Source: Orbicella franksi
Lineage: Eukaryota
Length of the DNA stretch: 64,000 bases
Reading direction: 5' to 3'
Assembly (NCBI GenBank): GCA_964199315.1
Contig: OZ116700.1
Span: forward strand, 32,674,001 to 32,738,000
Position 1 is the first letter of the stretch; the number at the start of each line of letters is the position of its first letter. Both the position numbers and the translations under genes were made by a program. Below are positions 31,878-40,137 of the stretch, in pieces. The notes below the pieces were generated by a model. The model was not told where the DNA came from, made no database searches, and worked only from the letters and a program-made list of their open reading frames with translations.

Positions 31878-33962
31878 TTATCCTGCAAATTTGCTTGTTC
31901 CCCCTTGATCTACCGTTAGAAGCAGTTTGCTAACTTGAGCGATTTCAATTGTGGATTCATGAAGTCTGTTAAAGTCCCTGTGTACTCGAATATCATTGCC
32001 AAGGTGTCTTGCAAGCCAGTCGACTTCTGTTTCTTTCAGAGACAATACTAGCAAAACAGTTTCACTGTACTTCCTCAGCCTGGTACTGGTGATATTTGTA
32101 AGGTTTGACAAAGGTGGTTCACAATTTGTGCTTAATATCTTGAGATAATTCCAGACATGCATGGGCTCTAACGACTCTCAATTTGGTCTTGCAAACACGT
32201 ACGGATTTTCATCTGCGATGCCCACTGTTTTTCTCCTCTTGATAAGAATATCAATGCCGTTGATCATCTCAGGGGTCAAAATGACTGGAACCTTTCTGCC
32301 TCTCTTGCCGCGAATCTTCTAGCCTGTTCCAAGCTCTCGGTAGCTGGGCTCTTGGTAGTTGGGGACGAGCGAAAACGAGCGAGAGAAAAAACGAGGGAGG
32401 ACTAAGGCGAGTCCTTCCTCATTGTTTCTCTCGCTCGCCCTTTTTTTCGCTTGTCCCCAACTACCGAGAGCCTGGAACAGGCTACGAATCTCCACCATGT
32501 CTAGTCTAAATAAAATAATAGAAGATAACTGTCTTCATTTGTGCAAAGTCCACTCTTTCGAAAAAATGGAGTTCTTCTTAATGAAAGCGCAAAATAGGGT
32601 TTGGTCAACCAGCCATCTAAACAAAGAGCGAAGCGAAAAATACATTTATAAAGTGACATAGTTAGATAACCATTTTCGCCTTTAGCTAGTCTAACTGAAA
32701 ATCAAGAGTTAATTAAAGTTTCCTGAATGATATACAGCAGCATTATATCAGGCAGTCTAGCTTATTTTCAGCATGTTAACGTACATTTATGCACATATTT
32801 AAATAATTATTTCACTGACCTATAATGAGTTTAAAACTTGACAGTGAAAGCTTGAAGATGTCGAAACGTTCTTTCTCTGGCCTAAAGGCTTGGAAAAGTA
32901 TTAGAAATTTGACAAAACGCGCGTTTATTTTCTTACTGTACTCGTCGCTATTTGATTACCCATACTTATAATATATCTTTGACCAATGCAGTTGCAAAAG
33001 CCTAAGACATTTAACTTCACGGACACTCCGAGTAATAGTTCCGTATCTTCACTTGCCTTCTGGATAATTCTCTTTCAAAGCTGCTAAATGCTGACATTCT
33101 TTCAAGATTGTTCAATTTTGTCCAGTCTGGTCTGTTCTGGTAACTGTTCAGAAGCATCTTCATCCCTCTCTTCGTTTGTTAAATATGACCAGCCTTGCTA
33201 GAGTTGCTTGGGCTAAATCACTTCACGCTTGTAGCTCAGGCTGTTCTTCCAGAAGTTTTACACTAGAGGACACCTTGACGAGGACAAACTTCCGTAGTTT
33301 ATCAAGCTCATCTGCGAGAGACAACAGCTTCACTTTGTTGAATTTGCTTGCACTGAGAGAGTTAAGAGAACGGTGAGATACACAATGACTCCACTCAGAT
33401 TCCAAAAGTTTTTCAAAATTGTCTGCATCCTCTTGCAAGTCCTTATCTTTCCTGCACAACGCTTGACCCCGAAGAATGTGAACACACTTTTTAAGGGAAT
33501 GACTCAGCTTTAAAGACAGAGAGGGAGTAGCCACATTCTGGACGCCTCCTTGAAAATGAAACTTTAAAACCTTTTTTACAGCACTAACGACATCAAACTT
33601 GTCAGGTTTCATGAAATCAGAGAGCTGAGCATCAGGTCGGAAATCGGTTTTACGAAGCTATATACAGCGCGAGCAGAGCGAGCTCCCTCATTTTTTGAGA
33701 AACCAGGTTGTTTTTCTTTTCTCTTCTCGAGAAGCATCACTCCAACATCTCTGATGAGCTCGTCATTTCTGGCGATTACTGAAATTTCATCCGTTTTCAT
33801 AGTTGCGAGGGGGCAATGGCAACTTCTCTTCCAGACTTGGTGCTTTAGCTTATAATGCCTTGCAATTTCAGAAAACAAAGTGCCACAATAGTAACAAGCT
33901 TGTCTCTTGTCATAAAACCTTATTCTTTTCTTGTCTACTTGTCTGTGCACCTCGTAAAGACA
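31878..33962 (-). pseudogene. Decayed intron-containing tyrosine recombinase of a Crypton-like DNA transposon
   Basis: Fragments: ACYYCG..IARHYKLKH (zinc finger-like), TPSLSLKLSHSLKKC, ARLVIFNKRR (first catalytic R), RLDMVEIRGKRGRKVPVILTP, STRLRKY, LGNDIRVHRDFNRL (expected H and Y both N). Frameshifts, stops, a GC-AG intron (33056-32506) and a MITE insertion. Confidence 0.8.
32320..32484. mobile_element. MITE (TAGCCTGTTCCA termini, 9-bp TSD) inserted in the recombinase exon
   Basis: CGAATCTTC / CGAATCTCC flanks; removing the element and one TSD restores MVEIRGKR. Confidence 0.85.
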
Positions 33963-34638
33963 CTGAAATGATAATGATATGAGTTATATAAGTACGTACG
34001 GTGACGTCATAGGCAAAGCTTTTGCCATCCATAGGTTACCACTTCCATATGACAACAACAACAACCATTTATTTGTACTCACAATTTATAAAATAATTAC
34101 AATAAACATTAAATTAGTATAGAGTACTGCCTGCCCAAAATAACCATAAGGGCTAAAAAGAATGGGCAGACATTAAGTTACATAGATTATTGCAAACACG
34201 TACGGATTTTCATCTGCGATGCTCACTGCTTTTCTCGTCTTGATAACAATATGCATGATGCCCCGCTAAAATGATATATAGATTTAGCCAAGCCTAAAAG
34301 CGGAGCTCCTAGGTCGGGTTGTTCAAAGCCCAATAAAGCTAACCCAGGGTAAGGGATAATTTTGATTGGAGTTTTGTAACTTTGCGGTGAGGTTTTCTTT
34401 ATCTTGTTTGGCTTTCTGTTTTGAGTTTGAATAATCTCAGACTAAACCGTGAAAGCAGTGAAAAACACTGTTATATAAGAAAAATTTATTTCTTCGGTTA
34501 ACTTTTAATCTTGGGTTAGTGTTAACCGCCTTCCGAGCAACCCGGCCCTGATTACAACAAGACGCATATCTGCGTAAACTTGGGCGTCTTTCCTGGCATA
34601 TCGAGCTGTAAACGCCAGGAAATCGACATGGTGAAGTC

Positions 34639-36144
34639 TTAGTTGTCTTTTGTCGATAGATTTACTTCAGATCTAAAAATTTCAACAGTCTTTGGCAAAT
34701 GAGCTGGTGAAAAATTCCCATTTAAACTTAGATTGTCACATAATCTTTTTCCATTGTCCACAATTTCTGCTAAAGTGTTTGAATTCCAATAACTACATGA
34801 TTTTATTAAAGAGTAGTAGAGAGAGTAGATAGCTACTGCACAACTAAGATTGAAGTTTTGCATTCCAAAAGAATTGTTTGAGAAAGTGTGCTATTTTGAG
34901 CTTGATTAATGTGTACCCCTTTTATTTCAAGTATTTCATTTTCATGTATACTCTGAAAATAATGTACCAAGCTAATCAGTGATGGTATTTCAAACAGTAC
35001 ACATGTACCTTGAGGATGCCCTCTGCCATACAAATCCCTTGCATGAGAATCAAATATTTTAAACCCCATATTACCATTACAGTAGAAAGCAACACTAATA
35101 ACCCCTACTGTTAATATAAAATTAGTGTGACCATCAGATATGAGTGATTCAAAGGCTCTTTGTAAAGAGGTACAGTACTGATATCCTTCTATTATTGTCT
35201 CTCGATGCACAGTGCCAGAATAGCTTTCACTGTATTCTAATTGATAGTCATCCTGAAACACATTTAACATAGTTGGCAATTCTGTCTGCATTAAACAGGA
35301 CTGTCTTGCTAATTGAGACAAACTTAAAACAATTGATTTCCAAAATTCATTATGTTGATGAGATCTTGAGCAGAACTAATGCTTTGTCTGGTATTGTAAA
35401 TCAAAGAACATAAACTCATTGCTACACATTGTTGCCCGGCATTTGCCCAAATACTAAACCATTACCTTGGCTATATGGTGCTGCAATTGTTTTGCTGGAG
35501 TCGACAAGCATTGGGGTAGGACCAGGGTTCTTTTCTATGTCTGAAATCAATTTAAATTTACAATAATTCGCTGCATGGGCCTGACTCTTGTAAAGACACA
35601 GTCTATTTGGAGAAAACAATGACAAATACCGACTAGCTCTCTTTCTCAACTCTAATAGACTTTCATGGATTGTCCCAGATCCTTTAAACAAAAACTTCGT
35701 TTTATTTCGTTGTTTTATAACTGTTACATAACAATGCACTTTGGAGGACTTCGGTGTACATGAACGAATACCTTTATAAAGAAATTCTCTAACCTTTCTG
35801 TTCTTGTTCCTCAATCGTTCCAGAGTTCGTATTGGTATTCTGCTGGGTTCACGATCACGTCTAAATACACGATAATGCTTGTGAAGCTTGTTCTTTGCAT
35901 GATTAACATTGGATAGCTCATTTGATATACATCTAGCATGGTTCTCGATAGGTTCACTCAGAAATCTTCGCTCGTAAATTGATCTCTCGTAAAGTCCGCG
36001 GAGCGACCCTTTCAAAAAACGTTCAAAAACGTTTAGCGTGGGTCTACCGCAAACGGTGTGTGCATTTGTATGTGGTTTGAGCGTAGAAGAAATCATAGTG
36101 TTCGTGCTTCCTTCTAAGGACGACGCTTGAGATAAATCCACCAT
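34639..36144 (-). pseudogene. Decayed transposon polyprotein: basic N-terminal ORF, 2A (DIEKNPGP), herpesvirus-tegument-type (peptidase C76-like) deubiquitinase domain, start of a second similar domain
   Basis: 2A core at 35541-35518; across three 1-nt frameshifts TIAAPYSQGN..FG(.)AGQQCVAMSL...KIFDSHARD gives Cys plus D-x-H; second repeat SCAVAIYSL..KSCSYWNSNTL..IVDNG. Confidence 0.72.
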
Positions 36145-36843
36145 TTTTTACCATGTGCTGATGTGCATACGTGCGCATGCGCAGAGATAACAAGCAGGGA
36201 CGCAAAGGGACGCATGCGTTGTAAGGCCCAGACGGCGATTTGTGACTGAACGCAAACAAAAATGAAGGGCAATTTTAAACTTGGGCTCCCTTTGGGATAC
36301 GCCCAAGTAACAAGTTAAGTCGACATGAGCCCGCGATCCAATCGAAAACGAGCAATTGGTCAGCGGTAGCTCGTCGCTGTAATGGGGCCTACAACTCTCT
36401 GTTTCTCTCGCCGTACAATTTTAAGTAAAAAATAAGTCAATGTCATTCGAGTGTCTGGTCGTTGCTATATTTGAGAGAATAAACTTCACGGATTTCCTCG
36501 CCTTCTGCTATTGAATTTGCTGTAGAAAAGTCCGATTTTAAGTGGGATTTATTGAGGTATATACAGTTTAAACAGGATGAGCTTCATCGACACCCCTGAA
36601 GGTATACGGTAACCTTAATGAATTTTAACAGGCTTATTTAATTAGGAAGCAAAGTGTTGCCCCTGATACGTTCTCGGCTTGATTTTTCAATATATTTATA
36701 TGAACAAAACTTGTAAATAAAATGGAAGAAGCGTGGAAATAACAGTAGTTATTACAATACGAAATCGAGACAGTTCATTAAAAGCTGGACAACATTGCTA
36801 TATATAACCTTTATTTACCCTCGGCAGTGTTATAGCACAAGTG

Positions 36844-37070
36844 CTAGTGGGGCCGAGCAAACAACTGAAGCAAATAATTCAAATTGAACATAACATTGTT
36901 AAGAATCCCAACTGGCCGGAGGCAAACCAGTTGGCTATTTACAAACATGGCAGAGGATTTGAACTTGGGGCTACCGAAAAACAAATCCCGGTAGTGGTCA
37001 GAGCGGGACTCGAACCCGGGACCGCTGGATTGCGAGTCCGACACGCTGACCACTCGGCCACGCTGCCTCC
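36844..37070 (-). mobile_element. tRNA-derived SINE
   Basis: Reverse complement matches the 13.6 kb SINE. Confidence 0.85.
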
Positions 37071-37316: not shown

Positions 37317-38363
37317 TTAAATCTGGCTGCATGTTTTTGCTTCCCGGGCGTCTATCAAGGGAATTCCGGCGGGTTTAAGCGAAGCTGCCCGTGCAGTGTT
37401 ATAAGGACTAACCAATGGACTGTGTGAAGGGACGCGAGTCATTGACGTGCTACTGTCGTAGGTAATATCTTGCAGCAGCACATCTCGACCCTCACTGCGG
37501 GGTTTTGGACGACGAATTGACACCAATATTGCTTCCTTAAACTCTGGAATCCTAAACGTGTACACCGCGGCGTTCATGAAAGAGTTACTGTAGTGTAACA
37601 GCTTTATAAAGAAAACAGTGTTCATGGAAAAGACGCATGTCTTACAAAAGTGGACTAAAATGAAGATGAGTTGAAACGGAAGCCATGAAAGGACAAAAAT
37701 AGCCGTTACACACAGCAAGGTTATACTCAACCGACGTTCAACCGTTAAATCTTTCTGATCTTTTGCACTGTTATTTTTCTGATTGATTTTAAAAATGATG
37801 GCTATGTAAGCAAAACAGGCAACAGTCAACGGCAAGGACAGAGAGAAAATCACGGCTGTGTAGAAGGCTTCTCTCACAATCCGCAAATAAAAAGCAATGC
37901 TAATGGCTGCAACGCATCCAGCGAGACACCACGTCGCCGCAACACAGCAGAAGTAAACCTTTCTGGGTATCATCCTGTATTTGAATGGAATCGAGACAGC
38001 CAGGAGCCTCTCTAGGGACACAATCGCCAGCGTGAACACGGACGCAAGTCCAGACAGGATATCCACTGTTGAATGAATCATCGGCAACACAAGACTCTGG
38101 CTCCACATCTGTGGATGCACCAGGTAGGAGATAAACAGAGGCACGGACACGGCTCCGACCATGAAGTCAGCAATGGACAGGTTGATCAGGAAGTAGTGGG
38201 TATGTTTTCGACGTGGTTTTGTCTTCATAAACGCAGCAATGGACACCGTGTTGGCCAAAATTATCAAGATGGCCACAATACCGTAAGACGTACCCCAGAA
38301 CGCAGCTTGGACGCTGGAGAGAGTGGTCGGTAGTCGTCTTTGGGGAAGTGAGGAATTGTTCAT
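37317..38363 (-). CDS. Intronless rhodopsin-like (class A) GPCR, 348 aa, orphan
   Basis: Seven hydrophobic segments; TM1 AN, TM2 LSIADF, TM3 SLERL (DRY variant), TM4 W, TM6 FVLSWLPF, TM7 NSFMNAAVY (NPxxY variant). ATG at 38363 follows a polypyrimidine/AG acceptor, implying a 5'UTR intron. Confidence 0.93.
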   Translation of the reverse strand: MNNSSLPQRRLPTTLSSVQAAFWGTSYGIVAILIILANTVSIAAFMKTKPRRKHTHYFLINLSIADFMVGAVSVPLFISYLVHPQMWSQSLVLPMIHSTVDILSGLASVFTLAIVSLERLLAVSIPFKYRMIPRKVYFCCVAATWCLAGCVAAISIAFYLRIVREAFYTAVIFSLSLPLTVACFAYIAIIFKINQKNNSAKDQKDLTVERRLSITLLCVTAIFVLSWLPFQLIFILVHFCKTCVFSMNTVFFIKLLHYSNSFMNAAVYTFRIPEFKEAILVSIRRPKPRSEGRDVLLQDITYDSSTSMTRVPSHSPLVSPYNTARAASLKPAGIPLIDAREAKTCSQI

Positions 38364-40137
38364 ACTTATTCTGCGATACAACAAGAAAACGAAAAAAATC
38401 ATCAATGAGATGCAAACACAGTCATTTCACGGTTTAGTGCTAACGAAGCCAGTTGTAGCATTAAATAGGTGACGTGCGTCAAATGTAAATTAGTGTTCTG
38501 GCGTTGTTTTGAATTTATAATTGTGTAATATTGGAAAGCTTAATCCTTTTTATCTCCGGCACATCACGATTATGGTTGACAAAGTTATAAACGTGACCTG
38601 ACGGATCTATTTAGTTGAATATAAAGCTGATGTTGACATTTTACTTTAATTGCATCTCAAGTCAGAGAGATATAAAATCGGGAGCTAAGACTTTTCAGCT
38701 TTTATTTCCTTTCAGAGTGTAAACACAATAGCAAAACTCTTGACAAGCAGTCTTGAATTACATCGTATTTACTCGAATTAATTACTCCTTTACCATACGA
38801 AACAATAAATCCCTTTCAACCAAAGCGGGCCGTAAAATAACATTATGACTTAATGTTGCCAAGAGCTAATATCATTTTGTAAGTGTCATATCTTTAAAAA
38901 TCTCTTCACTTATATTTGCTATTATTTTTTAATATGATTGTAGCCCTTAATTACTTCCTACAAGATACAAGGAAGAACGTGATTGCCCTTGTCACATTTT
39001 TCCTTGAGGCTGGTCTAACATAATTTGCAGCCGTTTAAATCACAATAAAAAGTACACCTGTGCTGAATTTTAATTTAGTAAAGTTACTGAGAAGGTTTTA
39101 AAAACATTCCCAGTTGAAAACGAGTCCAAAAGTGTGCAATTTTGTTACATTACTGTAGTGCCTCTTTGTATAGAACAAAGTGAACATCAACGGATGATCG
39201 ATCTACATGATTTAGCCGATTTTTTTAAGCTTGTTGTTTGTTTGTTCTTCTAAATCTCATCTAATCCTTCTTTTATGTACATTTGGGAGGCAGCGCAGCA
39301 AAAGTGATTTTTCACGCCGGCAGCGATGCTCTCAAAGTCACCGCGCCGACCTCAAACCCTACGGCCTGCCAAAACAGCATGCATCTTAGGTAGATAGGCG
39401 CGAGATTTTCTTCAAGCCAAAATTTATGTTTCTAGCCAACTAATCAGCCTCCACAAGCTGGAGTCTACCTTTTTTTATTCGAGGGTCGAGAGCAGCGGTT
39501 TAAGTCAAGTCCAAATGTTGAGGGAACAATGTGGCATAACCGTTGAGGAGCTTTTAATTCCAAAGTAGCCTTTGTCGGGAGATTTATATGCTTTGTCTTG
39601 AACAAAAATGACATTGTTAATCGCTGTAAAAAACACACAGAGAGCGGGAGTCAAACTCAAATTTAAACAGTTCACTTTGACATGTTAAAAGCTTTCATTG
39701 TCTTAAGGGTTGCCAAAGTAATTAATGCATCCCTGGTCTTTCAAGTCCGCTTTGCTCACTTGGTAAATTTTTGACTTTTTTCGTCACACACAATCACAAA
39801 ATGAAGATTTTGTTTTGATTAACAGAAGGATAAATAAAAATGCAGGTGAATCATTTTCAAAAATACTTCATTCAATTATCCGTTATCTTTTACCTTTCAC
39901 AGGAAAGACTTATCTGAACGACGTGATCACAGTAAGGTTATAGTAAAACTAGTCGTAGTCACATTCAGAGTTTTAGACGTTACGTAATCCCGCACATCTG
40001 TTCATTTCGAGAGACAAGAAGAGACGCAAGAGAATATTTCCAGAACACTCCACTACTCCAAAAAATAAATAAAGAAATAAATAATAAAAAAATATATCAC
40101 AGGATGCCAAAAACTGCACCTCTCAAAACAGCCTTAA

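Follow-up and report, generated by a model that had tools for sequence, protein, structure and literature searches.

VTD deubiquitinases are an already published component of Helentrons (PMC9741609), in which they are reported from vertebrates, insects, cnidarians and molluscs. They are described there as ubiquitin/NEDD8 proteases, cleavage of ubiquitin has been demonstrated for the VTDs of zebrafish Helentrons, and the Pfam family Herpes_teg_N has been assigned to HLE2 subgroup b (PMC11417382). 2A (StopGo) recoding has been described in RNA viruses, non-LTR retrotransposons and a few host genes, and no DNA transposon with it was found in the literature searched. The core motif by itself is inactive (PMC3708506), full activity of the FMDV 2A requires more than 30 amino acids (PMC12846837) and truncation of P2A brings activity down to about 8% (PMC12338488). 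Gly before the Asp is preferred by D-type viral 2As (PMC12846837), and the activity of 20-mers is associated with at least three Leu at positions -19 to -10 (PMC13405545).

Here we describe a locus in a window of 64,000 nucleotides from the coral Orbicella franksi, for which an original prediction had proposed a mobile element that releases a basic N-terminal protein from a virus-like deubiquitinase by means of a 2A-like motif.

A deleted Helentron inserted into a high-copy repeat

The feature is a non-autonomous, internally deleted Helentron copy of the HLE2/HINE type, an identity that we regard as virtually certain. The whole element, about 1753 bp long, occupies 34557..36309 and lies entirely on the minus strand, which the original prediction had not given. 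Its limits are defined by an empty paralogous site and by the ends that it has in common with a sister copy (L039/L040), which matches the window copy at both ends at 95-98% and carries a different internal deletion. The left terminal inverted repeat of 12 nt (36297..36308, minus) is nested in a 5' hairpin (36279-36308, minus; DNA fold -10.3 kcal/mol, calculated with no shuffle control); the right terminal inverted repeat (34578..34589, minus) is identical to the left at 11/12 positions, and beyond it follows a 3' stem-loop (34562..34575, minus) with the same layout in L039/L040 and L031. These termini were derived from the comparison of copies and are absent among the best 25 of 131 pairs returned by a generic inverted-repeat finder. 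The insertion is hosted by a high-copy repeat (left half 34279..34556, right half 36310-36365), recognized by high contig depth and by the empty site: the paralogues L040 and L090 join the window flanks without the element, and the insertion is read as T/T, with ownership of the T ambiguous by a few bases.

A DNA search of the 497-Mb genome with the window element gave 55 matches. The closest long copy (L021/L022, 75-79% DNA identity) runs on into DUF6570, Helitron_like_N and PIF1, and the Rep-helicase frame with DUF6570, present in the relatives L021, L071 and L074, has been deleted from the window copy. Rep motif 2 reads EFQMRGSPHL in L021 and L071, with the Ser between Gly and Pro that serves as a Helentron criterion (PMC4067079). 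Strings resembling the motifs of a C-terminal AP endonuclease are found at the ends of L071 and L021, with no Pfam endonuclease match at E 0.01. Named homologues come from corals. The proposed mobile element is borne out by its termini, the empty site and the Rep-helicase relatives. An endogenous herpesvirus was also considered and rejected, because the copies run into Helentron domains or host DNA and have no viral neighbour genes.

Several other features were observed along the way. Upstream of the closest long copy, one frame at L022:7886-9064 (minus) gives matches to a Ulp1-type protease, a PHD finger and an SprT-like protein. A second subfamily of non-autonomous elements (L023-L038 and related loci) shows about 73% identity to the window; many of its copies keep leader-2A-VTD open over 270-440 aa, often with a change of the D or H of D-x-H. 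The Helentrons L104/L105/L115 and L107 contain very long in-frame tandem repeats open on both strands, one frame of this group reaching 4554 aa. Elsewhere in the window, an 810-aa frame with an IPT/TIG domain and ankyrin repeats (21629-24061, plus) and a single-frame rhodopsin-family 7TM receptor of 369 aa (37317-38426, minus) were detected. Decayed frames with a Cys/His cluster (33983-33609 and 33657-33223, within 33000-33983, minus) yielded no passing Pfam family and, genome-wide, a single further match that is weak; we take them to recall the front of tyrosine-recombinase (Crypton-like) elements.

Coding sequence of the window copy

The coding remnant begins with a leader of 209 aa, counted from the first Met (35518..36144, minus), which ends in the 2A-like motif and matches no Pfam family. 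With 42 K+R against 16 D+E it is the basic N-terminal protein that had been expected, and its REPS block (35853-35842) is common to VTD and OTU families. The predicted string CKFKLISDIEKNPGP, directly followed by TPM, was found as proposed: its core DIEKNPGP (35518..35541, minus) fits (D/G/C/N)(V/I)ExNPGP, and the skip is predicted at the bond that joins Gly 35523-35521 to Pro 35520-35518. The only other NPGP in the window, at +37013, is without D-x-E; it is a chance product of a tRNA-like repeat (36960-37070, plus; identified by inspection), and similar DNA occurs after the sister copy L040.

From Met 36144 the frame reads through DIEKNPGP and enters the beginning of a cysteine-protease domain; QQCVAMSL then lies in a second minus-strand frame and IFDSH in yet another, in agreement with the frameshifted reading first proposed. 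This first VTD domain (34890..35508, minus) contains two frameshifts, has its Cys codon at 35428-35426 and D-S-H at 35051-35043, and is 69-79% identical to intact relatives, compared with which the frame changes near 35443-35434, 35327-35324 and 34890-34857. A contig of the public DNA run X4, possibly the window's own source, covers 35150-35589 free of differences and gaps, and a contig of run X2 covers 35192-35506 with 5 differences and 0 gaps. Because both cross the first two frame changes without gaps, sequencing or assembly error was rejected as their cause and the window copy is truly broken; with its internal deletion and frameshifts it is dead.

A second similar domain had also been predicted. 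Its start is present at 34657..34857 (minus), where the internal deletion ends it, with a match to the VTD profile that is weak (hhalign E 0.002, probability 14). The corresponding part of the relatives L021 and L071 has no D-x-H, and the repeat is probably inactive. Pfam gave no VTD match on the window's own fragments, and one RNA run, of which about 12% was read and which carries a related label, contained no reads from the 2A-VTD stretch.

Deubiquitinase fold and domain order in intact relatives

The identity of the domain was established on intact relatives. Herpes_teg_N scores above the Pfam cut-off in L035, L071 and L074, and the domain of an intact copy matches 8ADD, a zebrafish Helentron VTD, by sequence (E 9e-6). 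An alignment-based model of L071 residues 20-375 (mean pLDDT 79) retrieved 8ADD with a Foldseek E of 3e-16 and MCMV M48 (2J7Q) with an E of 7e-14 and a TM of 0.74 by target; a single-sequence fold of a VTD copy reached a pLDDT of only 36. The herpesvirus-tegument-type, C76/papain-like fold proposed at the outset is therefore confirmed by profile and structure matches, obtained on intact relatives and not on the window fragments. The notion of a virus-like deubiquitinase module holds for the fold; the domain is not stand-alone and forms the front of the Helentron Rep-helicase protein. The coral domains, as homologues of the zebrafish Helentron VTDs whose activity has been assayed, would be expected to act as deubiquitinases.

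The genome search for intact copies and their downstream domains yielded L071 (2549 aa) and L074 (2924 aa), single frames with the order leader, 2A, VTD, DUF6570, Rep (Helitron_like_N) and PIF1 helicase, whose VTDs are 37% identical to each other. Every nameable domain after the Helentron motif is a deubiquitinase, either VTD or OTU. The OTU family L128 bears a leader of the window type (31% identity, E 3e-10), and a second leader type, with 38 homologues, is followed by OTU in 21, VTD in 7 and no recorded domain in 10. An affinity of this second type to retrotransposon leaders was considered and is unsupported, a reverse-transcriptase or endonuclease family being found in 0/38 homologues. Of the 2A-VTD pairing originally noted, the order stands, with the motif preceding the VTD; since OTU families have the motif too, the 2A belongs with Helentron leaders and not specifically with the VTD. 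Family L092-L095 is devoid of both leader and motif, and its VTD begins at the first Met. The motif-OTU unit occurs twice in L091, as a tandem duplication in a Helentron frame (L091:2072-6394, minus) in which the second motif is without Leu-rich upstream context.

Conservation of the 2A-like motif and its upstream register

NPGP is conserved among the copies, having been kept before the same domain at 15/19 other loci. Genome-wide, the coding pattern D[VIM]ExNPGP has 226 occurrences and its reversed control 0. Of the first 30 pattern matches, 16 were read as Helentron-deubiquitinase sites, 5 as retrotransposon-like, 8 as members of one short repeat family and 1 as unclear. This abundant short repeat family (L138, L139, L146, L148, L154, L156, L160 and L164) encodes a peptide of 27 residues that starts with Met and closes with a canonical Leu-rich 2A, after which only a short frame follows.

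Among the 68 DUF6570 sites on C1-C7, 31 are preceded by the motif on the same strand at a distance of up to 6 kb (chance 0.001 each), and none has it downstream or on the opposite strand. The motif is found in 12 of the 20 stretches around the longest DUF6570 frames and in 5 of 20 further, mostly more decayed ones. An earlier count of 54/60 motif-bearing homologues was set aside, as its query contained the motif, and was replaced by a search with a VTD-only profile. After 84 of the best 150 matches had been dropped for want of a domain start or of 15 upstream residues, the 66 informative ones showed the strict form D[VI]ExNPGP in 34 and looser forms in 43. Named long VTD matches without the motif come from pipefish, crinoid, limpet and hagfish, so the motif is not needed for this class of protein. 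A quick Rep tree of 29 rows, from which L085 was left out, spreads the motif over three deep lineages, and a non-coral clade without it is placed among these. This tree and a second one, both quick and without bootstrap, show clustering and not the number of origins; P0055 was scored 'no' in this context solely since its N-terminus is missing.

Codons vary at all eight positions of 19 Helentron-linked motifs (rows chosen by motif presence), while D, E, N, P, G and P hold. The conservation extends upstream into a context of Tyr -24, Lys -23, His -19 and Leu -10 (35542..35592, minus). In a set of 35 non-redundant homologues, selected for having the core and a His around -19, 35/35 had Leu -10, 32/35 Tyr or Phe at -24 and 26/35 Lys -23, and this register is free of indels, whereas the spacing after NPGP varies. 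Core and upstream residues are kept even across homologues less than 60% identical around the motif. Taken together, these comparisons indicate that the motif is under selection at the protein level, and its place between the leader and a deubiquitinase, VTD or OTU, is fixed.

Proposed skipping and its alternatives

In intact elements, some ribosomes would skip the Gly-Pro bond at the motif and thereby release the basic leader from a deubiquitinase-Rep-helicase transposase starting at Pro. Such skipping would be partial and would require about 25-30 upstream residues; the leader, being basic, may bind nucleic acids, and the deubiquitinase may shield the transposase from degradation, as PMC9741609 suggests. 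The motif is somewhat likelier to cause StopGo skipping in intact relatives than to have another function.

The assay data available come from a preprint that screened 20-mers for skipping in HEK293T cells (PMC13405545). Of its peptides, 22 were assigned to these families, 3 with certainty and 19 by resemblance, four doubtful ones being excluded; the certain cases are peptides identical to those of P0069 or L101, or entered together with a VTD protein to which the authors give the label DNA helicase. By the preprint's class calls, made by a classifier 86% right on its own training set, 17 of the 22 are non-skipping, 4 falloff-only and 1 skipping. Skipping was called for 0/7 20-mers with the window's His register, one of them identical to the P0069 peptide, and the peptide identical to that of L101 is listed as non-skipping. 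The single skipping 20-mer is similar to an OTU family in which SLSG precedes the core. All screened peptides end at -19 and are thus without the conserved residues at -24/-23. In the window the permissive context is absent, with Ser and not Gly before the Asp and one Leu within -19 to -10; Gly before the Asp is present in L071 and several OTU families.

An alternative that we consider unlikely, and the strongest of those weighed, is that the motif acts as a nascent-peptide pause or drop-off signal, chiefly lowering the amount of transposase relative to leader. The 4/22 falloff-only look-alikes against a single skipping one point in this direction (PMC13405545), down-regulation of the downstream product has been proposed for retrotransposon 2As (PMC3708506, PMC13405545), and a register fixed out to -24 fits contact with the exit tunnel. 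However, falloff calls are frequent also among motif-less peptides of the same table, and none of the 22 falls into the reduced-protein class of a classifier with the accuracy given above (PMC13405545). Furthermore, the constant site at the start of the deubiquitinase corresponds to the Met start of the 2A-less family, which favours a defined new N-terminus.

It is less likely still, and improbable in our view, that the motif is kept for a non-recoding role, for instance as the cut site of a protease or as a binding motif with which the leader ends. The mostly negative screen results would be consistent with this (PMC13405545), the leader's own conserved REPS block suggests that the leader is itself a selected peptide, and a cysteine protease directly adjoins the motif. 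Against it, the VTDs are described as proteases of ubiquitin and NEDD8 (PMC9741609), and the motif stands before two unrelated folds at a distance of 4-50 residues. All six invariant StopGo positions are matched in several lineages, which would be unexpected for an extension of the fold, and the L071 model puts the motif in a predicted low-confidence linker outside the VTD core. Finally, that the window lineage is a weakened relic of a formerly active 2A, with only the Gly- and Leu-rich versions of other families still skipping, would accord with the negative His-register peptides and the SLSG-type sole positive (PMC13405545) and is very improbable, because relaxed selection would not keep core and upstream residues invariant among such divergent homologues.

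Skipping at the Gly-Pro bond in intact relatives stays our preferred reading. Beyond it, we give about even chances to a wider proposal: that coral Helentrons are DNA transposons with a 2A-processed polyprotein, made by an undescribed long StopGo class, Y/F-K-x3-H-x8-L-x2-D-I-E-x-N-P-G-P, which sits on a leader cassette that has been combined with one or the other of two unrelated deubiquitinases, and that these elements are the largest source of 2A motifs in the genome.

Comparison with known systems

The identity of the element, its ends and insertion, the one-frame domain order, the VTD fold and the selection on the motif are established here. As far as a search of the full-text literature shows, most subscription papers and Repbase aside, no Helitron or Helentron with NPGP or a 2A-like motif has been reported, and 2A in Helentrons is unpublished. 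This study adds the 2A before a VTD, a leader cassette exchanged between VTD and OTU families, a family whose VTD starts at Met, the long motif upstream of the core and assay results that are mostly negative. Should the motif skip, coral Helentron transposases would be polyproteins, the deubiquitinase would gain a defined N-terminal position by three converging routes (2A-VTD, 2A-OTU and Met-VTD), and the upstream context would represent a new class of 2A that short-peptide screens would score as inactive. Should it not skip, it would resemble StopGo, be under strong selection and serve some other purpose, which would also be a test of what makes a 2A work.

Compared with the herpesvirus large tegument deubiquitinase (C76, MCMV M48), the coral domain has the same fold and D-x-H order (2J7Q), whereas its neighbours are Rep and helicase, with no viral context. 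With viral StopGo/2A sequences it shares the core, the octapeptide DIEKNPGP being identical to Providence virus 2A2, which has an activity of 0.94 (PMC12338488 supplement 2); the context Y/F-K-x3-H-x8-L-x2, however, fits no motif group named in the available text of PMC12846837, and NDIE, TDIE and SDIE strings are absent from the table of Rao et al. As in the 2As of APE-type non-LTR retrotransposons (PMC3708506, PMC13405545), D(V/I)ExNPGP follows a leader near the N-terminus of the main protein, but here the motif is carried by a DNA transposon and is followed by a deubiquitinase in place of an endonuclease.

The element resembles HINE/DINE-1-type Helentrons (PMC4067079) as a deletion derivative with short terminal inverted repeats, a 5' repeat in a hairpin, a 3' stem-loop, TT at both ends and an empty paralogous site, and differs in that 1.5 kb of decayed 5' coding sequence has been retained. 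Closest are the VTD Helentrons (HLE2 subgroup b; zebrafish DrT1/DrT2; PMC9741609, PMC11417382), which likewise open a DUF6570-Rep-PIF1 frame, possibly extended by APE, with a VTD bearing Cys and D-x-H, and have a second VTD repeat, and OTU in related families. The window copy differs from these in being deleted and frameshifted, and its deubiquitinase is preceded by a leader and a 2A-like motif, the latter absent from the fish, crinoid, limpet and hagfish relatives found.
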